A stretch of DNA of 64,000 bases. Origin: a virus (Duplodnaviria > Heunggongvirae > Uroviricota > Caudoviricetes). Below the pieces are notes generated by a model. The model did not search any database. It saw only the letters and a list, made by a program, of their open reading frames with translations, and had not been told where the DNA came from. The stretch is taken from the IMG/VR virus record IMGVR_UViG_3300046692_000385. One strand, written 5' to 3'. Below are positions 10,647 to 58,848 of the stretch, piece by piece. The number at the start of each line of letters is the position of its first letter. The first letter of the stretch is position 1. Made by a program: the position numbers and the translations under genes.

Positions 10647-10672
10647 AAACTGCATTTCAGATACTTATATTA

Positions 10673-10688
10673 TAGTCAGTTTTGACTA
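10673..10688. promoter_or_regulatory. motif TAGTCAGTTTTGACTA fused to TATAAT
   Basis: Minus strand reads AGTCAAAACTGACTATAAT. Confidence 0.55.
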
Positions 10689-15106: not shown

Positions 15107-15117
15107 TGTGCATATTA

Positions 15118-15133
15118 TAGTCAGTTTTGACTG
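15118..15133. promoter_or_regulatory. motif copy B TAGTCAGTTTTGACTG fused to TATAAT
   Basis: Minus strand CAGTCAAAACTGACTATAATATGCAC then second inverted copy. Confidence 0.55.
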
Positions 15134-25064: not shown

Positions 25065-25898
25065 TTACGTGCCGGTGGCTTCCAGGTCGCCCAGGAGGTC
25101 GTCCAGCTCGTCGCTGAGTGCGACGCTTGCGGCCGACGGACCTGCTTCGACCTTCGCATGCGCCATCTCGACTTCACGCAGTTCGTCGTCACCGTCCAGC
25201 TCCGGCGTGCTCGGCTTGTCACGGCTGGCTACGGACGGAGCCGGCAGCAGACCCGCGACATTCGAGATCGCCGACAGCGCGCGACGCGTTTGCTCCTCGT
25301 TCTCCTGGGCGACATACTCGTCCAGGTTGTGGAGCTTGGCTTGCGTGCCCGCTGCCAGTGCGTGCTTCTTCGGCGAAATCTGAACCGAATACTTGGTGTT
25401 CAGACCCTTGCCGTCGCGCTGGATCACGACGATTTGCGGCGTCTCCGCATCGAACATCTGCGGACCCCACTCCTCGATCGTGTCGACCAACTGCGTGAAC
25501 GCCGACTTGCCCAGTTCGTAGATCACCGGGTCTTCCTTCGTCGGACCGTCGAGGTCCAGCACGTTGAGCACAAAGCCTTGCTTCGACTTCGCCTGCTTGA
25601 GCAGCTCCACCGTCTCGTCGTCGGTGGTGACGCGCATCGCCGAATTCAGGCCCGCGCACGCTTGGCAGGGCTTGCCGAACGTTGCTTCGTTGCAGGGGAT
25701 GACTGCCTGGATTTCACCTGCTGCGTTCTTGATGAAGTGCTGACCCCACTCGTGGAAGAACGTTTCCGGGTCTTCCTTGCGCCAGCCGCCGAGAATCACA
25801 AGGCGGTTCGCGCCAGGACGCGGCTTGACCGTTTTTTCCTTCGGCTTGAGTGCGGCCTTCTTTTGCTTCATCAGGGCCATCAGCTTGCTCGTATCCAT
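25065..25898 (-). CDS. putative ssDNA-binding protein (zinc motif, acidic tail)
   Basis: IPCNEATFGKPCQAC zinc-site-like; acidic C-tail DELDDLLGDLEATGT. Confidence 0.4.
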   Translation of the reverse strand: MDTSKLMALMKQKKAALKPKEKTVKPRPGANRLVILGGWRKEDPETFFHEWGQHFIKNAAGEIQAVIPCNEATFGKPCQACAGLNSAMRVTTDDETVELLKQAKSKQGFVLNVLDLDGPTKEDPVIYELGKSAFTQLVDTIEEWGPQMFDAETPQIVVIQRDGKGLNTKYSVQISPKKHALAAGTQAKLHNLDEYVAQENEEQTRRALSAISNVAGLLPAPSVASRDKPSTPELDGDDELREVEMAHAKVEAGPSAASVALSDELDDLLGDLEATGT

Positions 25899-25963: not shown

Positions 25964-25986
25964 TCATCGTTTCAGCAAATAAATTA

Positions 25987-26002
25987 TAGTCAGGATTGAC
26001 TA
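25987..26002. promoter_or_regulatory. motif TAGTCAGGATTGACTA fused to TATAAT
   Basis: Minus strand TTAGTCAATCCTGACTATAAT. Confidence 0.55.
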
Positions 26003-35787: not shown

Positions 35788-35839
35788 CGTATTGAACTCC
35801 CGAAAGTTTTATTCAGTTTGATTCGCTGCTGAAACATTA

Positions 35840-35855
35840 TAGTCAGTGCTGACTA
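35840..35855. promoter_or_regulatory. perfect-arm motif TAGTCAGTGCTGACTA in divergent regulatory region
   Basis: First of a cluster of AGTCAG / CTGACT half-sites (35840-36065) ending with TGACTAGCTATAAT before HTH gene 36073. Confidence 0.5.
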
Positions 35856-40348: not shown

Positions 40349-40813
40349 TTGCGCGGACCACCGGAGATTGCAATGGATCTACTGAACCTACTCGAAGGCG
40401 TCGCGGCAGTCTTAGCCATTTACATCTCAGTTGGGAAACTCCAAAGAGGGCTCTTAAAAAACTGGCTCACTGCCTGGCGCATCATGGCTAGCGTTGGGGT
40501 CGTCGCCGTCTGTGGGTGGATGCTGGTTTTCCAGGTGACCGGCAATATCGACGAAATAATTCACTATCCGCGCGCGGGCCTGTTTCGCAGCCTATCCGTC
40601 GCCGCGCTAGTGATCTGGGCAGCGGTCGTGACGGTCTGGGGCACCTGGAAGCCCTACCACGTCAAGACGATGAACATTCAGGAGAGGCGCTGGCACTTCG
40701 GAATCATGTTCTTGGTGTGCGTTCTCATCGTAGTGGCCGCGAAGATTCCACGCTGCTCAGGCAGTGCCTTATACGATTCTGCATGGGGAGTCTGGTGGTG
40801 CCAGCAGGGCTAG
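40349..40813 (+). CDS. membrane protein
   Basis: 154 aa, 4 predicted TM helices. Confidence 0.4.
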   Translation: MRGPPEIAMDLLNLLEGVAAVLAIYISVGKLQRGLLKNWLTAWRIMASVGVVAVCGWMLVFQVTGNIDEIIHYPRAGLFRSLSVAALVIWAAVVTVWGTWKPYHVKTMNIQERRWHFGIMFLVCVLIVVAAKIPRCSGSALYDSAWGVWWCQQG

Positions 40814-41463
40814 GCCTTGCCGCTGCGGCCCCAGCCGAGCGCTGCTGGGCGGCTGTAGTTGGCGAACTTCACCTTGAGCCAGTCTCTTGAGCGCCCGCGC
40901 TGATACGGCGAGTCGAGTCGCTTGCCGACCATACCCTCGAAATCGTGCTCCTTGACCTGCTCGAAGACCCATGCGCCGGCCGCCACGATGCCGGTTACGT
41001 AGACCAACACGGCCGTATTGTCGAAGGAGTCGCGCAGCGCCTGCTTGCGCTCGACAAGCGGCAGGTGCCGAATGTCGCGATCGCCATCGGCGAGCATGTC
41101 AAACACGTAGAGGCGGGCCGGGTGCAGCCTCATCGCGGCCCGCACGTTCGCTGCGACCGAGGTCCGCGCCCGAATTTGCAGGCGCTCGAATGAGGACTGC
41201 CCAGTCGGCTCATCCACAGTGAGCTCCGCGTCCCAGATGAAATCGCCGGGCACCTGCGCGACCGCCGCGAGCACGTCAGGAAACGAGCGGTTCATGAGGT
41301 TGCCCTGCCGCGAAATTAGCTCGACGCGCGCGCCAACCTTCCGAACCAGACAGCGATGGCCGTCGTATTTAAGTTCGAACAACCAGTCTTCGCGGGAAAA
41401 CGGTGCGCGGTTGAGCGTGGCGAGCATCAGGTCGCTGGCGTCGATGAGCGGAATGCCACTCAC
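40810..41463 (-). CDS. ATP-dependent DNA ligase nucleotidyltransferase domain only (no OB domain)
   Basis: Motif I KYDGHR, III FIWDAEL, IV LYVFDML, V EGMVGK; 217 aa. Confidence 0.6.
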   Translation of the reverse strand: MSGIPLIDASDLMLATLNRAPFSREDWLFELKYDGHRCLVRKVGARVELISRQGNLMNRSFPDVLAAVAQVPGDFIWDAELTVDEPTGQSSFERLQIRARTSVAANVRAAMRLHPARLYVFDMLADGDRDIRHLPLVERKQALRDSFDNTAVLVYVTGIVAAGAWVFEQVKEHDFEGMVGKRLDSPYQRGRSRDWLKVKFANYSRPAALGWGRSGKA

Positions 41464-44508: not shown

Positions 44509-44919
44509 TCACCAGGTTTTGATTTCTTCGAGCTTCAGTTCGATTTCGGGCGACGCCTCGATCGTGCGCAGCGCGAGCAGGCGCATGTCGTTCAAATGCG
44601 CGCGCACCGCTGCCAATTCCGCTTTGTGCGATTCGGTCGCTTCACCGCTCGATGGACGGAATCCCTGCTTGTAGAGCGCGTCGAAAAGCGCTTGCGCGGC
44701 TTTATGCGTGAGCGTGAACATCGGCTCCGGCGGCATCGCCTGACCGGTCGGCACGTTCTCGACTTCAAACGAGCCGAACGGCTTGATGACGCCCACGCCG
44801 GTCGTGCCTCGATACGACAGGCCGTGAACGTCAAGACCGCCCACGCCCATGTTCTCGCGCATCATCACCTCCTCCAGCCACAGAGTCGGGACCGCCTTTG
44901 GGGTGGACGACGTGCTCAT
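44509..44919 (-). CDS. hypothetical protein
   Basis: 136 aa. Confidence 0.45.
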   Translation of the reverse strand: MSTSSTPKAVPTLWLEEVMMRENMGVGGLDVHGLSYRGTTGVGVIKPFGSFEVENVPTGQAMPPEPMFTLTHKAAQALFDALYKQGFRPSSGEATESHKAELAAVRAHLNDMRLLALRTIEASPEIELKLEEIKTW

Positions 44920-46313
44920 GCTGCGAGCGCCTCCACCTTCTTGCCGGTGACAGCATTCGCGCGAGCGGCGATCACTTCTTCCAGCGAGTCGGCCGTCTCC
45001 TTGTCCGTGCGATAGCTGGCTTCAGCCATGCGCGGCAGGAACAGGCTATGCAGCGGGTTGCTGTCGGAGGGCTTCATGATTTCGTTGAAGCGAATCGGCC
45101 ACACGTGACCGATGAAAGCTTCGCGGTCGGCGTCGATGGCGTCACGCAGCGCTTCGTTCTTCACCGCCACATTGACCTGCAGCAGACCGTCGCGGGTTTC
45201 CATCGTGACGCGCCCTGCCCGCCCTTCGTTCTTCGTGCCCGGTTCGCCGTCGAGGATGGCGGTCGAGACGAGATCCACATCGATTTCCAGCTTGAGCTTG
45301 ACCACATCGGCGTTGCCGCTCGACGTGTCTTTCCAGACGCCGGCGCCGTTCTTGAGCACCGTGCCTTCCTTGCCTTCGATCTGCAGGCTCGCGCAGTGTG
45401 CATAGGCTTCGTCGAGCGAGTGGACGATCTTCGTCGGGATCAGGCGCACCGAAGCGCCGCCCGAGCGCATGATTTGCGTGAGCAGGCCTCTGAAGCGCTC
45501 GCGATACGGCGTGTCGCAACTGCCCTTTGGCAGCGCCAGTTCGAGCGGGATCTGATCCCAGGCGAAGAAAACAGGCTTCTCGTTCGGAGCGAAGCTGCCG
45601 CCCGCCAGCACGCTGTTCAGAATGCCGTTGCCGAGTTCACGCGAGGCGACCACGCCGTCGACCAGCACCACGATCTCGCCGTGCGTCTGCGTGCCAGGTG
45701 AAAAGGTTTTGCGCGCTTCGTGTTCGATGGCGGGGAACGCCTCGATCGGCAGTTCGTTGCCCTGGCGCGTGGTCAGGCGCACGACGCCGGCCGTATCGTG
45801 GTCAACGTTCGTGAATGCGCCGTCTGCCTTGTGCTGGCTGAACGCGCCCGCCTTCCAGTCCCACTTGTCGAACTTCGCCTTCTCCGGCAGCACGCAGCGC
45901 ATGTAGGGGAAGCTGCGGATCGTGCCCTTCTTCGCCTTGTTGACGGTTTCGGCCGAGAAGCCCGCGCGCAGGTCTTTCTTGATGATGCGCCAGAAGAGTT
46001 CCGACGAGGCGGGCTCAAGGCGCTCCATCTCCGCGCGCACTGCGTCGATTGCCGCGTTGCCGGTGAGGTCACGCGCGGCGAGGCGCTTGATGATCGCGTA
46101 GGTGTCTGCGTCGAACATCGCACCACCAACCTTCGCCGCGTCATTTTCCGGGCGTTTGCTGATGCCGTAGCTGATCAGCGGGTCGAGCGCGAACAGCAGC
46201 ACGTCCCGAAAGTCGACATCCTCGATGTTCGCGGCGACGAGCGCCTGCTTTTCGTTCTTGCTGCTGGTCGAGGCGATCGTATCGATCAGCAGGAAAATCT
46301 CTTTCGAATTCAT
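44916..46313 (-). CDS. ATP-dependent DNA ligase (full length)
   Basis: Motif I region QHKADGAF, adenylation + OB domains, N-terminal DNA-binding domain. Confidence 0.7.
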   Translation of the reverse strand: MNSKEIFLLIDTIASTSSKNEKQALVAANIEDVDFRDVLLFALDPLISYGISKRPENDAAKVGGAMFDADTYAIIKRLAARDLTGNAAIDAVRAEMERLEPASSELFWRIIKKDLRAGFSAETVNKAKKGTIRSFPYMRCVLPEKAKFDKWDWKAGAFSQHKADGAFTNVDHDTAGVVRLTTRQGNELPIEAFPAIEHEARKTFSPGTQTHGEIVVLVDGVVASRELGNGILNSVLAGGSFAPNEKPVFFAWDQIPLELALPKGSCDTPYRERFRGLLTQIMRSGGASVRLIPTKIVHSLDEAYAHCASLQIEGKEGTVLKNGAGVWKDTSSGNADVVKLKLEIDVDLVSTAILDGEPGTKNEGRAGRVTMETRDGLLQVNVAVKNEALRDAIDADREAFIGHVWPIRFNEIMKPSDSNPLHSLFLPRMAEASYRTDKETADSLEEVIAARANAVTGKKVEALAA

Positions 46314-47736: not shown

Positions 47737-47807
47737 CGATTCCTCTCTCGCGCTTTACTGTCGCGCTTTCAATAGAAAACATTGTAGCGTTCGATGCTCG
47801 GGAATTG

Positions 47808-47823
47808 TAGTCAGTTTTGACTA
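47808..47823. promoter_or_regulatory. motif TAGTCAGTTTTGACTA fused to TACAAT
   Basis: Minus strand TGACTACAAT. Confidence 0.55.
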
Positions 47824-47840: not shown

Positions 47841-48923
47841 TCAACGTCCCTTCATGAGCTTCATGCGGGTGGCGGCCATCGGGTTGATGGTCGTTGCCTT
47901 CCAGAAGGCGTCGCGCACCACTGCCGCCGGCACCTCGTTCGGGTCGCGCCCTTCCGGGAGCACCGCCACGCGCGCGGTGAGCCCGATCTTCTTGACCATC
48001 AGCGCCGCTTCGATGGCCGCGTCGATCGCCTTATCTTCGCCGTCCCACATGAACGTGACCATCTCTAGGCCGCCGTCGCGCAGCTTCGCGAGCTTTGCCA
48101 TCTGGGAGTGGTCATCGCCGTGCGAGAGGTGCTTGCCGAAGCTTCCGATCGGCACCACGTCGCGCAGCTCCATCTGCTCATCGAGCGCGATCTTGGTGGC
48201 AGCCACGTCGAACACGCCCTCCCCGATCACCACGTGCTTTGCCGCGTGCGCGTTCTGGCCGTTGTAGAGCACCGAGCCCGTCGAGGCGAAGCCCGGCGGA
48301 AACAAATACTTCTTCGGCGCCTCGCCCGTGATGTCGCGGCCCTGGAACGTCACGAGGTCGCCCTCCAGGTCGAACACCGGGATGATGACGCGGTGGCTGT
48401 AGTCCTGCGCGAGCGTCTTGCCGTTATCGTCCTGGTAGACGAACTCGCCGTCGTGCGAGTAGCGCAGGCTGAAATATTGGGAGATCGCGCCGGTGATGTT
48501 GCGGTTGTCCAGATACTTCAGGTTGCGCTGGTTGTGCGGCAGCGCGATCGACTTCGGCAGCTTGAGCGCCGTGTCCAGGTTCACCGCGACCGCGACCTTG
48601 CGCTTCGGGCGCCAGCCCTGGCTCTTGGCGAAGCTCGTGATGTGCTCCACCACGTCCCGGTTGCTGTCCGAGCCGAGCTGTGCCTTGATGAAGGACCACT
48701 TGTTGAACTTGGTTTCGCAGTCACCGGCGAAGCAGTTCCCCAGACCCGTCTCCAGACCGATGTAGACCTTCCAGTTCGAGTTGCCGCAGCACGGACACTC
48801 CTTGACGTTGGCCTGCCGGCCGCGCGCACCACGTGCTTGCTTATACGTCACGCCCTGATCGTCGAGCCACGCTTCGATGTCCAGCGTCTCAATTGCTTCC
48901 TGAAGCTCCGCGTTATCGCTCAT
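47841..48923 (-). CDS. DNA primase (zinc ribbon + TOPRIM)
   Basis: CPCCGNSNW zinc finger; TOPRIM-like region. Confidence 0.7.
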   Translation of the reverse strand: MSDNAELQEAIETLDIEAWLDDQGVTYKQARGARGRQANVKECPCCGNSNWKVYIGLETGLGNCFAGDCETKFNKWSFIKAQLGSDSNRDVVEHITSFAKSQGWRPKRKVAVAVNLDTALKLPKSIALPHNQRNLKYLDNRNITGAISQYFSLRYSHDGEFVYQDDNGKTLAQDYSHRVIIPVFDLEGDLVTFQGRDITGEAPKKYLFPPGFASTGSVLYNGQNAHAAKHVVIGEGVFDVAATKIALDEQMELRDVVPIGSFGKHLSHGDDHSQMAKLAKLRDGGLEMVTFMWDGEDKAIDAAIEAALMVKKIGLTARVAVLPEGRDPNEVPAAVVRDAFWKATTINPMAATRMKLMKGR

Positions 48924-49101: not shown

Positions 49102-50523
49102 TCACTCGACTCTCAAAATGCCCTTGATGAACGTCATCGTCGCCATGTCCTGTTGAATGAACACGGTGAAACCCGACTCCTGATTTCGTGATGCGGCAAA
49201 GTAGAGCCGCGCCTCGTTCTTCGAGCGCTCCTCGTCGGTGATGTTGATGGAGATCACCAAGTCGGCAATTCGGATGCGGTTAAAGTCTTCCGCCACGTGC
49301 TCGGCTTTCGCCACCGTGGACTTGAAGCCCTCCCGGTTCGTCTGCGTCGCCGACAGCATCGCGAAGCCCTCGACCAGCGCAATTGCGCGCATGTCGGTGT
49401 AGATGGACTTCGAGTTCTCCACCGAGTCGGGCGTGCGGTAGTTCGGCGCCATGATGTCGAGGTAGTCGCACACCACCAGGTCGAAGATGACGCCCTTCGC
49501 CTTGTAGCGATCGATCAATGCCTGCATCGAGTTCGGCGTGAACTTCGAGGACGGGAACTCATGCACCTTCAGCAGACCCGAGCGCGCACGCAGCGCCTTG
49601 ATCTTGCTGTCGGTGTCGTGGATGTTCTTCGTCAGCTCCTTGATCAAATTCTCGGAGATGGACGCATCCAGACGTTTCGCGATAATGTCCGCGCCGAGCT
49701 CCAGCGTCACATACAGGACGTTCTTGCCGACGAGCGAGGCGTTCTTCGCGAAGTTGATCAAGGCCGTCGACTTGCCCGCCTTAGCCCCGCCCATGAACAG
49801 CGTCAGTTCTTTGCGGCCGAAGCCTTTGTGCATCAGCAGTTCATCGAGCTTGGACAAACCGGTAGAAATTCCCTTCGGCGCCGTCTTGCCGCTCGCTTCG
49901 TCGAGGCGTTCTTCCGTGCGCGATTCGATCTGCGCCCAGTAGTCGTAGCCGTCGTCGGCCTCGTTCAGCCCGACGTCATACGCTTCCTTGATCGCCTTCA
50001 GGATCGGATCGAATTTCTTTTTCTCCAGCAGGCTCACCGACGACAGAATCGCCTGGCTCACCGCCTGGTGTCGTGCGAACTCCGCGACCTTCTCGGCCAC
50101 GTAGTCACGGTCGCCCACCGGGTGATCCTTGAGCACCTTGAACGCACGCACCACTTCGGCAGCCGCGTCCTTACGCATGCGTGCGCTCGTTACTGCGTCG
50201 CGAATCAGTGTCGGGAACACCGCGGCTTCAGGCGTGCGCTTGAAGCGCTCGAAATAGCGCAACGTCAGGTCCACTACGCCCGCTTCACCGTCGTTCTCGA
50301 AATACTCGGGCTTGAGCAGGTGCGACGAACGGCGCATGAATTCCGTGTCCCGCAGCGCGAGCGTCGCGATGATGGTCTGGAACTCGTCGTCGAATTCGAA
50401 CTTGTTGGCGATGAACTCTTCCACGCTCTCGGATTCGGCAGCAGGTGCGGCAGCGCCGCTATACGCAGCGCCCACCATCTTTGCGACCGATTCCTCGACG
50501 CTTGCGATGGCGGCTTCGCTCAT
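49102..50523 (-). CDS. dnaB: DnaB-family replicative helicase
   Basis: RecA-like C-terminal domain with Walker A GGAKAGKST; N-terminal DnaB-like domain. Confidence 0.8.
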   Translation of the reverse strand: MSEAAIASVEESVAKMVGAAYSGAAAPAAESESVEEFIANKFEFDDEFQTIIATLALRDTEFMRRSSHLLKPEYFENDGEAGVVDLTLRYFERFKRTPEAAVFPTLIRDAVTSARMRKDAAAEVVRAFKVLKDHPVGDRDYVAEKVAEFARHQAVSQAILSSVSLLEKKKFDPILKAIKEAYDVGLNEADDGYDYWAQIESRTEERLDEASGKTAPKGISTGLSKLDELLMHKGFGRKELTLFMGGAKAGKSTALINFAKNASLVGKNVLYVTLELGADIIAKRLDASISENLIKELTKNIHDTDSKIKALRARSGLLKVHEFPSSKFTPNSMQALIDRYKAKGVIFDLVVCDYLDIMAPNYRTPDSVENSKSIYTDMRAIALVEGFAMLSATQTNREGFKSTVAKAEHVAEDFNRIRIADLVISINITDEERSKNEARLYFAASRNQESGFTVFIQQDMATMTFIKGILRVE

Positions 50524-50954
50524 TGGAAGTGACCTGCTTCCGGGAGGGCGCCGGGTTCTACGATGCGAACCGTCTCCCCTGTGATGAGAGTGGTGGCGCG
50601 CGGCAGCGGTTTGAACTGCTGGATCGCGTGCTTGAACACCACGTGCGTCCAGCCTTTCACTTCGAGCGAAATCGTAAAGGCGTCGGCCGCGCGGATCTTG
50701 CCAACGAGGACCGTTTCGTCGTCACGCATATAGACTTCGATCTCAGCACCGGAATCCTGCAGCGCCTTCAGAAAGGCCTGGTGCCCGGTCGGTGCGTTCT
50801 TCGGCTTCACGCGCGGTGCGGGGCGCTGCGTGGGGCGCTCGTAGCCAGGGCGCGCACCGAGACGCGGGCGGGCGCTCTGAGGTGTGCCCTCGTCGCAGCG
50901 GGCCAGGCGCTGTCCTTCACGAAGTTGTTCGATGCGCAGTTGTTCGGGGGTCAT
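50520..50954 (-). CDS. Hfq-like (Sm fold) protein
   Basis: QAFLKALQDSGAEIEVYMRDDETVLVGKIRAADAFTISLEVKGWTHVVFKHAIQQFKP aligns with Hfq Sm1/Sm2 (..YKHAIST..); start MTPEQL at 50954 with GGAGAG RBS. Confidence 0.5.
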   Translation of the reverse strand: MTPEQLRIEQLREGQRLARCDEGTPQSARPRLGARPGYERPTQRPAPRVKPKNAPTGHQAFLKALQDSGAEIEVYMRDDETVLVGKIRAADAFTISLEVKGWTHVVFKHAIQQFKPLPRATTLITGETVRIVEPGALPEAGHFQ

Positions 50955-51011
50955 GAAGCTCTCCAACACGGGTATGGGTAGAAAATGAATGTCACTCTGA
51001 CGCAAACATTA

Positions 51012-51027
51012 TAGTCAGTTTTGACTA
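51012..51027. promoter_or_regulatory. motif TAGTCAGTTTTGACTA fused to TATAAT (contains stop codon of 51025..51783)
   Basis: Minus strand CATTAGTCAAAACTGACTATAATG; upstream of Hfq-like gene. Confidence 0.55.
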
Positions 51028-51783
51028 ATGCTCACCGGCTATTTGAAGCGCTGCGTCCACGACTCCCGCAGGAAAGTGGGCGAGCGCGGCTTCGATGCGC
51101 AGGATGCCGTGGGTGTAGAGGGCCGCCGACAGGGAAAACTTCGGGTGCGCCCGCTGCTTGATCTGCTTGATGAGGAACGCCTCGTAGGCGATCTGGTCGG
51201 CGTGTCCGAACCAGTTGGCGGCCAGGTAGCGCTCGTCGGCGCAGATTTGGAGGCTGTTGCGGCACTCCTCTTCCCAGGCGAGCACCATGTCGGCCAACAT
51301 CTCGTCGTTGGCGTTCATGTGCGAGGGGCGCGGCGCGTGGTGCCAGCTCCGGGCCATCATCCAGTTCATTGCGAAACGCAGGAAAAAATTGTAACGAATG
51401 CCGAGCTGATCTCCCGTTTGCCGGAGCTGCCAGAGCGCTTTCTTTTCCTTTGCGACCATGAAGTCATCGCCGCCCTTGAACGGCCGCATGAACTTGCCGC
51501 GTTCGAAGTCGAGCGTCGTCACCATGAAGTCCTGATAAGCCTTCCGGTAGCACTGCGCGAAGAGGTAGGTCGCCTTCGTCGGGTGCATCCGCCGGTAGTC
51601 GAACCACTTGGTCGTGAGGAGCTCGGGTTCGCGCTTGAGAATCTTGCCGTCGATGTTGGCAATTGCCGCGACCTCGCAGCGCAGGAACGACAGGTCGTGT
51701 CCGTAGAATTCCCCGAACCATTCCGTGAGCTTGGGTTCCGCGATTGTGACTTGGGTCATCCTCTCCGCCTCGTATATAAACAA
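51025..51783 (-). CDS. hypothetical protein
   Basis: 252 aa; start ambiguous (MFIYEAER vs MTQVTIAE); stop codon TAG lies inside a motif copy. Confidence 0.5.
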   Translation of the reverse strand: MFIYEAERMTQVTIAEPKLTEWFGEFYGHDLSFLRCEVAAIANIDGKILKREPELLTTKWFDYRRMHPTKATYLFAQCYRKAYQDFMVTTLDFERGKFMRPFKGGDDFMVAKEKKALWQLRQTGDQLGIRYNFFLRFAMNWMMARSWHHAPRPSHMNANDEMLADMVLAWEEECRNSLQICADERYLAANWFGHADQIAYEAFLIKQIKQRAHPKFSLSAALYTHGILRIEAALAHFPAGVVDAALQIAGEH

Positions 51784-51918: not shown

Positions 51919-52197
51919 TCAGAACTTGGTCGGTGCCGCCACCGCCCGCGTGAGAGCCATCAGACCCGTCTGCAGGTCGGTCATGCCGATGGACGCCCAC
52001 CGCAGCGGCGCCGTGACGGTCGACCCAACCGGGAAGCTCTCGGGCAGCGGCCCCTTCTCGCGCTCGATGCAGTAGTGCTGGACCTTCGTGACAAGATCGC
52101 GCAGGGTGCTGCCGGCCGCGGCGATTTCGTTCATCAGGTCGATCTCGGCCTGGGGCAAGTCGCGATACCCCGTAATGCGTTGATGTTGGTCTTTCAC
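51919..52197 (-). CDS. hypothetical protein (92 aa, GTG start)
   Basis: GTGA overlap with phoH stop, AAGGAAG RBS; C-terminal part of a longer out-of-frame ORF-track entry. Confidence 0.35.
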   Translation of the reverse strand: MKDQHQRITGYRDLPQAEIDLMNEIAAAGSTLRDLVTKVQHYCIEREKGPLPESFPVGSTVTAPLRWASIGMTDLQTGLMALTRAVAAPTKF

Positions 52198-52952
52198 GCT
52201 GCTTCCTTTTCGTAGCTGGACAATATTTCCTGGATGACGCCGTGCCGCACGACATCCTCTTTGGAGAAGCGCACGTGGCCGACAGTCGGAATCCACGTCA
52301 CGCGCTCGATTGCGTCCTGCAGACCGGACTTGCCGCGGATGTCGCACTGGCCGATGTCGCCGTTGACGATCATTCGGGAGCCTTCCCCGATCCGGGTCAG
52401 GAACATCTTCATCTGCTCGGGCGTGGTGTTCTGCGCCTCGTCCAAGATGACGATTGCATGTTTGAAAGTGCGGCCGCGCATGTAGGCGAGCGGCGCGCCT
52501 TCGATGTTGCCCATGCGCTTGTGATACTCGTAGGCGCCGGTGCCGAGGCGCTCGATCATCACTTCCTCGAACGGCACGAGGTAGTGGCTGAACTTCTCTT
52601 CCATCTCGCCCGGCAGAAAGCCCAGACTCTCGCCCGCCTCCACCGCCGGTCGGGTCACGATGATTCGCTCGATGCGTTTCTCGCGCAGGGCATCCGCTGC
52701 GAGGGACGCGCATACCCACGTTTTGCCGGTCCCGGCGGGGCCCGTCGCGAAAGTGATCGTCTTGCCCTTGATGGACGCGATGTAGCGCCCCTGGGCTGCT
52801 GTGCGGGCTTCGATCGGGTCATACGACGGACGCACCACCTTGCGCCGCGCTTGCTCGGCAGCGGGGTCGAAGTGTGCGGTCTGGTCCTCATTGCGCCGAC
52901 GGTCGGTGCGGGTCTTCTGACGGGATTGTTGCGGTTGCTTCTGGCGGGGCAT
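52194..52952 (-). CDS. phoH: PhoH-like ATPase
   Basis: Walker A ATGPAGTGKT and PhoH core. Confidence 0.8.
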   Translation of the reverse strand: MPRQKQPQQSRQKTRTDRRRNEDQTAHFDPAAEQARRKVVRPSYDPIEARTAAQGRYIASIKGKTITFATGPAGTGKTWVCASLAADALREKRIERIIVTRPAVEAGESLGFLPGEMEEKFSHYLVPFEEVMIERLGTGAYEYHKRMGNIEGAPLAYMRGRTFKHAIVILDEAQNTTPEQMKMFLTRIGEGSRMIVNGDIGQCDIRGKSGLQDAIERVTWIPTVGHVRFSKEDVVRHGVIQEILSSYEKEAA

Positions 52953-53337: not shown

Positions 53338-55101
53338 TCAGTTGGAGCGGGTTCGAGCGGGTGCGAAAAGGTGACGGCTGCGGCTTCCCGGCTGCGCGCT
53401 CTGCTCGCGGGCTTGTGCGGTGAGGCTGCGCGTGCGGGTCGGAGTGAGGCTGCGCACGCGCGACGGCACGAACTTGGCCGGCACCACCTGCGTCTGAGCC
53501 GTGAGGGTGAGCGCCGCGTCGAGCCGGGTTTCGATGGCGAGCTCCGCCGACAGATCCAGGGGCTCGATGTCGCCCATCCAGGCCGCGAGGGTCGAGTTAG
53601 TCTGAAGGTCAGCGGCGAGCGGCACATCCATGCGCAGCGCCGCGGCAAGTGTTGCGGCCGGCAGCAGCTCCGCGGCGAGATCGATCGGCGTCAGCACCTG
53701 GCCGAGCGTCGCGTCGGCGTCGAGGGTCGTGCCCGCGTGCAGGTCGGCTGCGATTGCCTTGTGGATCGTCAGGTCGGCCGTGAGCGAACTGGAGGCCTCG
53801 AGATCCACGCTGATCGCGCGTGCACTGCCCACCGCCGCAATCAGGCTCGACTGCGTGTGGAGGCTCGCTTCGAGGGAGGTCGAAAGGCCCGCGGCCGCGG
53901 TGAGCTGAGATCCACCCGTGAGTGCGGCCTCGAGCTGCACGCCACGCGTGGCGCCGGAGATGAGGCTCGATCCGGCGATAAGCGTCGCGGCAAGCGGCCG
54001 GTCGATCGTGACCGCGCCGGCGAGGCTTGCGCCGGCCGTGAGGCTGGTTGCGAGTGAGGTTGAGAGTGCGGCGGTCGCCGCGAGGCCCGAACCGCTGGCA
54101 AGACTTGCCGCGAGCGGGACGGCTTTGCTTGCGTTCGCTGCGAGCGACGATGTGCCCTGCAAGCTCGCATTGAGCCCGGTAGCGAGTCCAGCCGTGCCCG
54201 TGAGTGTCGATGCGCTCGCAAGCGCTGCGGCAAGCCCTGTCGCGAGACTGACGGTGCCCGAGAGGGTCGATGCCGTCGTGAGTGCGGCAGATACGGCGAT
54301 ACCGGTCGACACCGGCGTGTAGGTGATGCGGATCTGGCCGCCCGCAGCCGTGCCGCCCGTGCTCGAACCCCAACCACCGCCGCCCGAACCACCGCCCGGA
54401 AAGCCGCCGTTGCCGCCGTTGTTGCCGTTCGACGTCGAGCCGGTGTTACCACCGCCACCACCGCCACCGCCGCCACCGCCGTTTGCGTTCGAGCCGCCGG
54501 CGCCGCCGTTACCGGTGCCGGTCGCAGCGCCTGCTGTGCCCTTTGCTCCGCCCAGGCTGTTGTCACCTGCGCCACCTGCACCGCCCGCGCTGGTTGTGGG
54601 TGCGACGCCTACCGCGCCGACGCCATCCGGGCCTGGCGCGCCACCACCGCCACCACCACCGCCGTTCGTCGCGTTGCGCCCGTTGCCGCCGGCAGTGCCC
54701 GCGCGCTTGACCTGGCCGTTAGCGCCGGTCGTGGTTGCGCCGAGACCGCCCGTCGACGAGCCGCTGATCGGTGCCTTACCGCCGTTTGCTGACACGACGC
54801 CCGATGCGACGGAGGTGCCATCGAACCAGGTGCCGGTGCCGTCGAAACCAAAGCCGTTGCCGGTCGACGATGCCGGCCCACCCACGCCCAAGCCAATCGG
54901 GACTTGGCGACCAGGCGTATAGCCGGTGAGATTGGCGCTGCTCGAATAGCCACCCGAGCCACCGCCTGGTGAGCCGTTGGGTGCGTCGGCGTTACCGCTC
55001 GCGCCTGCGCCATGTGTTTCGACGGAATCAAGGGTGCCGGAGCAGTTCGCCGGCACTTCCCATACATCACCTGCTGTGAGGATGACGACTACTTGCGCCA
55101 T
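53338..55101 (-). CDS. Gly-rich fibre-like structural protein
   Basis: 587 aa; long GGxGG tracts then repetitive Ala/Leu/Thr beta-like repeats. Confidence 0.55.
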   Translation of the reverse strand: MAQVVVILTAGDVWEVPANCSGTLDSVETHGAGASGNADAPNGSPGGGSGGYSSSANLTGYTPGRQVPIGLGVGGPASSTGNGFGFDGTGTWFDGTSVASGVVSANGGKAPISGSSTGGLGATTTGANGQVKRAGTAGGNGRNATNGGGGGGGGAPGPDGVGAVGVAPTTSAGGAGGAGDNSLGGAKGTAGAATGTGNGGAGGSNANGGGGGGGGGGGNTGSTSNGNNGGNGGFPGGGSGGGGWGSSTGGTAAGGQIRITYTPVSTGIAVSAALTTASTLSGTVSLATGLAAALASASTLTGTAGLATGLNASLQGTSSLAANASKAVPLAASLASGSGLAATAALSTSLATSLTAGASLAGAVTIDRPLAATLIAGSSLISGATRGVQLEAALTGGSQLTAAAGLSTSLEASLHTQSSLIAAVGSARAISVDLEASSSLTADLTIHKAIAADLHAGTTLDADATLGQVLTPIDLAAELLPAATLAAALRMDVPLAADLQTNSTLAAWMGDIEPLDLSAELAIETRLDAALTLTAQTQVVPAKFVPSRVRSLTPTRTRSLTAQAREQSAQPGSRSRHLFAPARTRSN

Positions 55102-58408: not shown

Positions 58409-58807
58409 TCAGTGCGCCACGAACTTGACGATGCCGACCAGAGCGCCGCTGCCGATGAGACCGCCGAGGATCGTGTAGACCACCTTCAGCGTGCCCGCCA
58501 TGCCCTTCACGGTCGCGACGTGCTCGATGTTGGTTTCGTTGAGCTTCGTGACGGCTTTGTTCGTTTCGACCAGGCGATCTTCGAGTTTCTCAACCCGCAT
58601 CTGAGTCGCCTGATGACGCTCCTCGAGAATGGCGAGTTTGGTGATGGCTGTCGCGATTTGCGAGAGCGCCCCTTTGATTTCGCCGACGTCGCGCTGGACG
58701 TCGTTGACTTGTTGCTCCAATGCGCCAAGATCAACAGGCATGTCATCGTTCCCAATCGTCACTACGAAATTCCCCTTGTCTGTCTCTTGCAAAGGCCAAG
58801 CCGGCAT
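58409..58807 (-). CDS. coiled-coil protein with C-terminal TM anchor (holin/antiholin candidate)
   Basis: C-terminal VVYTILGGLIGSGALVGIV; first gene of lysis cassette after paired motif copies. Confidence 0.4.
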   Translation of the reverse strand: MPAWPLQETDKGNFVVTIGNDDMPVDLGALEQQVNDVQRDVGEIKGALSQIATAITKLAILEERHQATQMRVEKLEDRLVETNKAVTKLNETNIEHVATVKGMAGTLKVVYTILGGLIGSGALVGIVKFVAH

Positions 58808-58811
58808 GATA

Positions 58812-58825
58812 AGTCAAAACTGACT
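58812..58825. promoter_or_regulatory. motif copy A (AGTCAAAACTGACT) of inverted pair
   Basis: Abuts start of lysis-cassette first gene. Confidence 0.5.
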
Positions 58826-58833
58826 GTGGGTAA

Positions 58834-58848
58834 AGTCAGTTTTGACTA
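58834..58848. promoter_or_regulatory. motif copy B AGTCAGTTTTGACTA
   Basis: 8 nt from copy A, opposite orientation. Confidence 0.5.

Follow-up and report, generated by a model that had tools for sequence, protein, structure and literature searches.

The stretch of DNA analysed here, referred to throughout as the window, comprises 64,000 nucleotides (nt) of a Caudoviricetes virus (IMG/VR record IMGVR_UViG_3300046692_000385) and is clearly from a phage. It has a GC content of 61%, and nearly all of its genes lie on the minus strand, including the gene considered here, which begins with an ATG at 50954-50952, ends with a TGA at 50522-50520 and encodes a small protein related to Hfq. In many bacteria the central RNA chaperone is Hfq, which first came to light as a host factor of phage Q-beta. 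We found that this open reading frame (ORF) is a genuine gene and that its product is a divergent member, specific to a phage lineage, of the Hfq (bacterial Sm) family. The gene and the parts of its product, with the predicted local distance difference test (pLDDT) of a structure model where it defines a part, are as follows.

50520..50954, minus strand: Hfq-like protein gene, 144 amino acids (aa) plus stop, from the ORF and its translation
50959..50964, minus strand: Shine-Dalgarno sequence GGAGAG, 4 nt 5' of the Hfq-like ATG, from direct sequence reading
50886..50948, minus strand: N-terminal helix, residues 3-23 (MTPEQLRIEQLREGQRLARCD...), AlphaFold2, pLDDT 91-94
50787..50885, minus strand: disordered Arg/Pro/Lys-rich arm, residues 24-56, low pLDDT, isoelectric point (pI) 12.0
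50607..50786, minus strand: Hfq (Sm) core, residues 57-116, alpha1 at 57-68 and beta1-beta5 at 71-116
50523..50606, minus strand: C-terminal tail, residues 117-144, variable and mildly acidic, low pLDDT

All homologues of the window protein have an equivalent start, MTPEQ. The helix that follows is almost invariant in the close homologues, and its '..R..Q...G.R..' pattern is found in most, but not all, members of the wider phage family described below. A preliminary description of this locus, made from the letters alone, had reported an extended N-terminal region rich in arginine and proline, and this is indeed present, with 8 prolines and 8 lysines plus arginines (6 of them arginine) among the 33 residues of the arm; the helix that precedes the arm had not been mentioned. 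The core of the window protein carries the motifs GH(Q/E)AFLKAL, D91-x-F93 and F107-K108-H109-A-I. Tails across the family are diverse, 6-34 aa long, with a negative net charge in about half. A family-wide tip motif of the SSB or Hfq C-terminal domain type was sought among these tails and none was found, the recurring endings (EEGHYQ, TEEGHAV, ..TLQ and ..LAA) being specific to subclades.

The same description had proposed a phage-encoded Sm protein of the Hfq type, and on this point Pfam, a PDB profile search, hhalign, AlphaFold2 and Foldseek agree. Residues 60-116 matched Pfam Hfq (PF17209) with an E value of 1.1e-8 and a score of 35.0 bits, above the gathering cutoff of 27. A profile of the window protein and four homologues matched 18 distinct sequences in the PDB, all of them Hfq, the best being those of B. 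subtilis (3ahu, 2.5e-6), Listeria (4nl2) and Aquifex (5szd). With the 109-member family profile, hhalign gave E. coli Hfq a probability of 95.9%; the alignment spans 60 columns and is broken by two small gaps, both in loops connecting strands. The peptide previously said to align with Hfq residue by residue corresponds to residues 59-116, and the alignment stands apart from those two loop gaps. A single-chain AlphaFold2 model built from the 109-sequence family alignment had a mean pLDDT of 84.3, rising to 96-98 in the core, and showed the expected Sm topology, with a helix at residues 57-68 followed by five strands within residues 71-116; an earlier run on five close sequences had been uninformative (pLDDT 55.6) and is superseded by this model. 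When the model was compared with the PDB by Foldseek, the top 50 matches were all Hfq, with target-normalised TM scores of 0.70-0.93 and root-mean-square deviations of 0.9-3.2 Å, and identity to any solved Hfq was about 23-36%. The Hfq-type Sm2 motif, [YF]-K-H-[AS]-[IV], is present as F107-K108-H109-A110-I111 and is retained across the family (F/Y 100%, K 99%, H 95%), and the beta4/beta5 strands of the subunit interface are conserved together with this YKH motif. The similarity to Hfq is thus far beyond chance. The window protein fell far short of the NCBIfam Hfq equivalog cutoffs, which mark proteins with the same function as chromosomal Hfq, in both TIGR02383 and NF001602 (29.9 vs 61.7 and 24.5 vs 95, respectively).

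Hfq binds RNA through three surfaces, of which the phage family keeps one, and the positions that form them were mapped between E. coli Hfq and the phage proteins by hhalign and by an alignment of 199 unique sequences with about 30-40% pairwise identity. The equivalent residues are listed below.

Proximal pocket/interface: E. coli Q8, window H58, family H 100%
Proximal pocket/interface: E. coli D40, window D91, family D 100%
Proximal pocket/interface: E. coli Q41, window A92, family K 83%
Proximal pocket/interface: E. coli F42, window F93, family Y/F 97%
Proximal pocket/interface: E. coli Y55, window F107, family F/Y 100%
Proximal pocket/interface: E. coli K56, window K108, family K 99%
Proximal pocket/interface: E. 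coli H57, window H109, family H 95%
Scaffold: E. coli G34, window G85, family G 99%
Rim: E. coli R16, window Q66, family E 62% / Q 25%
Rim: E. coli R17, window D67, family T / A / D / E
Rim: E. coli R19, window G69, family G 68%
Distal site: E. coli Y25, window Y75, family E 38% / T / V / I
Distal site: E. coli I30, window T81, family E / D
Distal site: E. coli K31, window V82, family variable

As judged from these alignments, the positions of the proximal pocket and interface are under strong constraint and those of the rim and distal site are unconserved. Within the uridine pocket (Q8, F42, K56 and H57 in E. coli) the window protein keeps F93, K108 and H109, and the position of Q8 is occupied by an invariant histidine, H58. 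The rim arginines that characterise matchmaker-type Hfq (R16, R17 and R19) are missing, and the distal A-rich (ARN) site, formed by Y25, G29, I30 and K31, is not preserved across the family, the window protein itself retaining Y75. The mean net charge of the family core is -0.9, compared with +2 for the E. coli core, whereas the 25 residues before the GH motif have a mean net charge of +4.8, and at least +3 in 95% of family members. In effect, positive charge has been shifted from the rim to the N-terminal arm. With neither the rim arginines nor the distal A-rich site conserved, a canonical role as a matchmaker of small RNAs (sRNAs) and messenger RNAs (mRNAs) is unlikely, although the protein may bind or sequester U-rich RNA. 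The role suggested in the preliminary description, redirection of host sRNA networks or chaperoning of phage RNA, thus agrees only in part with the sequence.

These surfaces bear directly on the idea that the protein is a full substitute for, or competitor of, host Hfq, acting as a canonical matchmaker or entering mixed rings and rewiring the sRNA networks of the host. Membership of Pfam Hfq speaks for it, as do the retained proximal pocket, which is the site that binds sRNA U-tails, the tyrosine (Y75) that the window protein keeps at the distal Y25 position, and the public records that name the protein Hfq. The rim arginine patch of Hfq catalyses sRNA-mRNA annealing (PMC3753642), and its arginines are replaced by Q66, D67 and G69 in the window protein. 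The distal site has likewise drifted (Y25 to E in 38%, I30 to E or D), the scores fall far below the equivalog cutoffs, and the closest solved relatives are Gram-positive and Aquifex Hfqs, not those of the E. coli or proteobacterial type. With this balance of evidence we consider a substitute for host Hfq improbable.

A word-indexed search returned only five close homologues, two of which had been named 'sRNA-binding regulator protein Hfq' by JGI (one 99% identical). An exhaustive profile search of 1.84 billion representatives gave 333 clusters (50% identity) at E<=1e-3 and 87 at E<=1e-10. Against the profile of the window protein and its homologues, canonical bacterial Hfq reaches about 30 bits and so, by extrapolation, should miss the threshold of E<=1e-3 in a library of that size. 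The 150 best profile matches were 80-165 aa long, with the one exception of an unrelated 914-aa protein, and most of them have a common architecture of N-terminal helix, basic linker and Hfq core. Their cores carry the motifs KGH(E/D/Q)AFLKAL, (K/R)xSDK(Y/F)TIS and V(I/L)(F/Y)KH(A/D)I..F, and the family was defined by G-H-[EQD]-A-F-L-K-A-L, D-[KA]-[YF]-T-I-S and [FY]-K-H-x-I-x-x-F. The window protein belongs to the family so defined by its GH-Sm motifs, its basic arm and the place of its gene between the genes for a conserved protein (phrog_2500) and a DnaB-like helicase. Pfam Hfq was matched by 108 of the 109 aligned members (E<=0.01), and PHROG 19781 (65 members) and PHROG 5258 (44 members), both labelled 'unknown function', were matched among the same 109.

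Scans of IMG/VR with three sub-alignments located 79 family loci, and a species-genome collection added 2, giving a total of 81; many of the contigs that bear them are 99-118 kb long. The two additions were the only genomes with a family gene when one genome was taken for each of 185,579 bacterial and archaeal species, and in both the gene lies within the phage cassette of neighbouring genes described below. One is a Paraburkholderia sp. metagenome-assembled genome (MAG), in which the cassette (locus L076, NZ_JASGFN010000003.1, 308397-316789) is embedded in a contig of 450 kb, a setting suggestive of a phage that is integrated or was mis-binned. The other, Massilia sp. TN1-12 (locus L077), carries the cassette on a phage-sized contig of 112,962 bp that may be a phage-plasmid or a co-assembled phage. 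Among 50,697 isolate phages, megablast of the region's DNA found no match, nor did tblastn with two protein queries, that of the window and P0049, a central member of the family; relatives in isolate phages surfaced only through synteny and the family profile. The family is old and phage-specific; its gene is clade-wide and vertically inherited, a core component of the helicase-primase operon and not a sporadic acquisition, which the preliminary description had missed.

This distribution also bears on whether the gene could be a recently captured host hfq, an auxiliary 'moron' without a phage-specific role. Phages do acquire host genes, and the domain family is bacterial. The 333 clusters at 50% identity, however, share an architecture that is not bacterial, all 81 loci lie in one phage cassette, and identity to any solved Hfq is only about 23-36%. 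Recent capture is excluded, in our view, by the near absence of the gene from bacterial genomes, where 2 matches in 185,579 species both sit in the phage cassette, and it can be given only a very small likelihood.

An even smaller likelihood attaches to the possibility that the ORF is spurious, a chance product of GC-rich DNA with long ORFs on both strands. An antisense ORF of 178 aa (50445-50981, plus strand) does overlap the Hfq-like gene, and its GC content at third codon positions is similar (0.69 vs 0.72). Conservation of the protein already refutes this explanation: there are hundreds of divergent conserved sequences with invariant functional residues, the gene has a proper ribosome binding site and ATG, and its synteny and coupling are conserved. 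The antisense ORF is a by-product to be expected from the high GC content, and conservation backs the minus-strand gene only.

The genes that surround the Hfq-like gene in the window are the following.

52194..52952, minus strand: PhoH-like ATPase, first gene of the cassette, Pfam PhoH at 1.9e-74
51025..51783, minus strand: phrog_2500 conserved protein, PHROG 2500 at 3.5e-60, the ATG at 51759 being the probable true start
49102..50523, minus strand: DnaB-like replicative helicase, Pfam DnaB_C
47841..48923, minus strand: DnaG-type primase, final gene of the unit, Pfam DNAG_N/Toprim

The preliminary description had placed the Hfq-like gene downstream of the replicative helicase. Because the gene is on the minus strand, it in fact lies upstream (5') of DnaB, and its stop codon overlaps the DnaB start by 4 nt (ATGA). 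The gene order PhoH, phrog_2500, Hfq-like, DnaB, DnaG was found in 81 of 81 loci, where the flanks are present, and it holds even where DnaB is only 42-55% identical to that of the window. The distance from the Hfq-like stop to the nearest DnaB start was -10 to +24 nt in 69 of 69 loci (median +1, 29 overlapping), as measured with a start-picking rule that favours nearby starts. The phrog_2500 protein (about 240-250 aa) is always encoded between PhoH and the Hfq-like gene and is also found in SSU5 and in Rhizobium phages. It had no Pfam match, and a 13-sequence profile of it had no match in the PDB; the residues that are invariant in it (D-Y-R, W..RQ and P) point to an enzyme or a specific binder.

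A promoter-like motif, TAGTCAnnnnTGACTATAAT, recurs at the borders of this unit and elsewhere in the window.

51008..51027, minus strand: promoter-like palindromic motif TAGTCAAAACTGACTATAAT, just upstream of the Hfq-like gene
47804..47823, minus strand: copy of the motif, TAGTCAAAACTGACTACAAT, 18 nt after the primase stop, at the end of the unit
10669-10688, 15114-15133, 25983-26002, 35836-35855, 47804-47823 and 51008-51027, minus strand: the six copies in the window, intergenic and ahead of gene blocks

The motif, 20 nt long, joins an AGTCA/TGACT palindrome to a perfect -10 hexamer. When the window was searched for its 15-nt core with mismatches allowed, 6 matches appeared on the minus strand, where 0.25 would be expected by chance, and six 20-nt copies were confirmed by alignment and by a regular-expression scan. 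The motif precedes the Hfq-like gene in 34 related loci, and it also follows DnaG in, for example, loci L006, L008, L011, L012, L019, L061, L068 and L076. A generic sigma-70 scan did not call the motif sites because they have no -35 hexamer at the standard spacing. We infer that the motif acts as a promoter, and it may be a phage-specific promoter/operator. At about 58812-58847, upstream of a gene at 58409-58807 (minus strand), there are also two inverted AGTCAAAACTGACT palindromes without a TATAAT (AGTCAAAACTGACTTTACCCACAGTCAGTTTTGACT), a pair that may be an operator-only version of the motif. The placement of the motif copies and the spacing of stop and start codons indicate that the Hfq-like gene heads, as first cistron, a conserved unit which continues with DnaB and DnaG and is bounded by two motif copies, and that it is probably translationally coupled to DnaB.

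The remainder of the window encodes a DnaE-type DNA polymerase III (Pol III) alpha subunit, a ribonucleotide reductase, an SbcC-like nuclease subunit, a UvsX-like recombinase, CobS/CobT-like proteins, an ATP-dependent ligase, tail fibres and an SSB (25065-25898) that is encoded away from the Hfq-like cassette. No tRNA genes and no Rfam family matches were found in the window. The nearest cultured phages are siphoviruses of about 105-120 kb, namely Rhizobium phages RHEph10 and V1VFA-S, Pseudomonas phage nickie (Nickievirus), Stenotrophomonas phage BUCTxx99 and Salmonella phage SSU5, with only about 37-45% identity in Pol III alpha and DnaB. The closest relative found was the Paraburkholderia MAG contig (DnaB 87% and PhoH 78% identical). 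Since the cassette is carried by this contig and by that of Massilia, the host is probably a member of the Burkholderiales and likely a betaproteobacterium.

Two further features of the window were noted. A 587-aa ORF at 53338-55101 (minus strand), which adjoins the tail-fibre genes, is rich in Gly over its long N-terminal half, with GGxGG runs, and Ala/Leu/Ser/Thr repeats (..L.A.L...S.L.G.A..) recur periodically through its C-terminal half; the ORF probably encodes a fibre or adhesin-like structural protein. The ATP-dependent DNA ligase profile (PHROG 114) matched two ORFs, a full-length one of 465 aa at 44916-46313 (minus strand) and one of 217 aa at 40810-41463 (minus strand); the latter matches only part of the profile and may be a ligase fragment or domain paralogue.

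What the protein does is best captured, at somewhat less than an even chance but as the most likely single reading, by a one-faced RNA binder that acts post-transcriptionally during the replication phase. The protein would assemble into an Hfq-like ring and would grip U-rich single-stranded RNA, such as 3' U-tails and unstructured U-rich leaders, on its proximal face, with six basic N-terminal arms standing in for the missing rim charge. Such a ring would not be expected to pair sRNAs with mRNAs, because it appears to lack both the second RNA site and the annealing patch. It would repress, protect or sequester U-rich transcripts of the phage, the host or both, and its production would go along with that of the helicase and primase, possibly in matching proportion. 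A functional analogy may be drawn with RegA of phage T4. All T4-like phages have the regA gene within their core replication cluster, and some 30 mRNAs are repressed by RegA, which binds their unstructured A+U-rich initiation regions (PMC3014915). This likeness, an RNA-binding translational repressor resident in a replication cluster (PMC3014915), is one of genomic logic only, as RegA has an unrelated fold and binds RNA as a monomer. Rhizobium phages V1VFA-S and RHEph10 and Salmonella phage SSU5 keep DnaB and DnaG and have no gene at the Hfq-like position, and no family match was found in them within 3-4 kb on either side of DnaB. That relatives without the gene nevertheless have DnaB and DnaG is easier to reconcile with a regulator than with an obligate helicase loader.

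Several observations weigh against a one-faced RNA binder. The proximal pocket on which it depends is itself altered, by the change of Q8 to histidine. The tight operon linkage to DnaB points at least as naturally to a role in replication, and such a role has been proposed for archaeal plasmid Hfq-like genes that are co-transcribed with helicase genes (PMC3543421). Hfq cores can also bind DNA, as the E. coli core does (PMC7144919). Finally, of 25 unique related leaders of the Hfq-like gene, 17 contain a U-tract of at least 4 U, compared with 8 of 65 (12%) window genes; the contrast lacks specificity, since AT-richness is shared by other promoter-proximal leaders. The U-tract was also considered as an autoregulatory leader site, a candidate that was set aside, as it is not clearly enriched relative to other promoter-proximal leaders.

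The main rival reading makes the Hfq-like ring a cofactor with which the DnaB-DnaG machinery of the phage would work. The ring might bind RNA primers, T-rich single-stranded DNA, an origin transcript or an R-loop, and its N-terminal helix or arm might contact DnaB and aid the loading or regulation of the helicase. The gene is the first cistron of the helicase-primase unit, with an overlap or near overlap of stop and start, across a clade in which DnaB identity falls to 42-55%, and the stop/start coupling might give comparable amounts of the proteins. Hfq rings are hexameric, as are helicases of the DnaB family. No recognisable helicase loader was seen among the neighbours scanned, and SSB is encoded elsewhere (25065-25898). 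The ZF-Hfq-like genes of Thermococcus and Methanocaldococcus plasmids, which adjoin helicase genes, offer an independent precedent (PMC3543421), and the E. coli Hfq core binds DNA (PMC7144919).

A feature of DnaB itself was examined as a prediction of this rival, since a DnaB peptide that co-occurs with the Hfq-like gene might hint at physical contact. The first ~40 residues of the window DnaB (50404-50523, minus strand) form an extension, made up of a peptide (SVEESVAKMVGAAYSG) and then an Ala/acidic linker, that precedes the canonical 'KFEFDxEFQ' start of the helicase N-domain. This extra N-terminal peptide (..E.SVA.MIG..FSG..) was found in 71 of 71 loci of the main subfamily, in 65 by the strict pattern and in 6 as close variants, and it is absent from V1VFA-S, SSU5 and BUCTxx99, while RHEph10 has a short acidic extension without the motif. 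Its correlation with the Hfq-like gene is only partial, however, because most KGHDA-subfamily loci, all of them with the gene, lack the peptide or have it in degenerate form. The peptide also persists where the N-terminal helix of the Hfq-like protein is missing.

Other evidence tells against a cofactor of the helicase and primase. DnaB and DnaG persist without the gene in related phages, which shows that it is not needed for helicase function generally. The conserved synteny amounts to a single evolutionary observation, because all 81 loci share one ancestry, and adjacent, overlapping phage genes are often unrelated in function. The strongest constraint, moreover, falls on the residues of the pocket for RNA uridines and 3' ends. 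We regard an accessory role in the primosome as somewhat unlikely, although it ranks directly after the RNA-binding regulator among the readings considered. Its more specific form, in which an Hfq ring integral to the DnaB-DnaG primosome binds a U-tailed origin transcript, R-loop or primers and couples them to helicase loading or priming, is slightly less likely again.

The Hfq-like protein can be set beside several known systems. Bacterial Hfq (PF17209), especially that of the Gram-positive and Aquifex type (3ahu/3hsb from B. subtilis, 4nl2 from L. monocytogenes, 5szd from A. aeolicus and 1kq1 from S. aureus), has the same Sm fold and topology, the common F/Y-K-H-A-I Sm2 motif, and the D40, F/Y42, K56 and H57 residues of the uridine pocket. 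The profile alignment with B. subtilis Hfq is ungapped through beta3-beta4, unlike that with E. coli Hfq, and S. aureus Hfq, like the phage family, has few or no rim arginines. The phage proteins differ from bacterial Hfq in the invariant histidine that replaces Q8 in the GH motif, in an acidic or neutral rim, in an unconserved distal site, and in having an N-terminal extension (a median of about 46 aa before GH) in place of the usual C-terminal one; they also differ in being encoded in a helicase-primase operon and in scoring below the equivalog cutoffs.

The closest counterparts in cultured phages are found in the Nickievirus phages of Pseudomonas syringae (nickie, Nican01, phiK7B1, ZY21 and hairong), which have a syntenic gene between phrog_2500 and DnaB that overlaps the DnaB start. 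Against the family profile, the nickie protein gp117 (YP_009620715) scored 40 bits (E 8e-12), and its GH, D and Y positions are retained. The annotation of the Nican01 gene reads 'hfq: RNA-binding protein Hfq', and the hairong gene was matched by family member P0113. The Nickievirus proteins differ in being much shorter (89 aa), in having no N-terminal helix and in a degenerate Sm2 motif, FKSSI, in which H57 is lost, and their match to Pfam Hfq is sub-threshold (23.4 bits). The paper describing phage Nican01 does not discuss the hfq gene. In BUCTxx99, a 69-aa protein (WPH68506, locus L004 2802-3011) is encoded at the syntenic position and its gene overlaps the DnaB start. This protein appears Sm-like by eye (..VVVFIDGQDIAGEFAGYDDRSYIIKL..) and was rejected as a family member, since it had no Pfam, PHROG or family-profile match; it may be a very divergent remnant.

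Outside this group of phages, the archaeal ZF-Hfq-like proteins of Thermococcus and Methanocaldococcus plasmids combine an Hfq-like domain, an N-terminal addition, a mobile element and a helicase neighbour (PMC3543421). Their genes (on pP12-1, pCIR10, pIRI48 and pMETVU01) lie immediately downstream of a helicase gene, apparently in one transcription unit, which led the authors to propose a replication role (PMC3543421). The archaeal addition is a C2H2 zinc finger, whereas the phage proteins have a helix and basic arm, and the archaeal gene is downstream of the helicase, whereas the phage gene is upstream. The helicase and Sm lineages presumably differ between the two, which are likened here by description and not by sequence. 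Another phage protein with an Hfq-like fold, gp39 of mycobacteriophage Adephagia, has been noted on the basis of structure (PMC11373665).

In our search of the literature, no functional or comparative study of Hfq encoded by phages or other viruses came to light; what we found were database annotations and a single mention based on structure. The fold and the family are already known, and some members had been labelled 'Hfq' by public pipelines. What is new is the definition of a large phage-specific family, its architecture, its selective retention of the proximal pocket and its invariant first place in a helicase-primase unit. The competing models are directly testable because cultured P. 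syringae Nickievirus phages carry divergent members. The family represents a natural separation-of-function variant, with the proximal pocket only and, as it appears, a basic arm replacing the arginine rim. If the protein is an RNA regulator, it would be a phage regulator or sponge that uses one face of Hfq. If it belongs to the primosome, an Sm ring would have been recruited to DNA replication as a new kind of helicase/primase accessory factor, which would echo both the use of host Hfq by Q-beta for its replication and the Hfq-helicase operons of archaeal plasmids.

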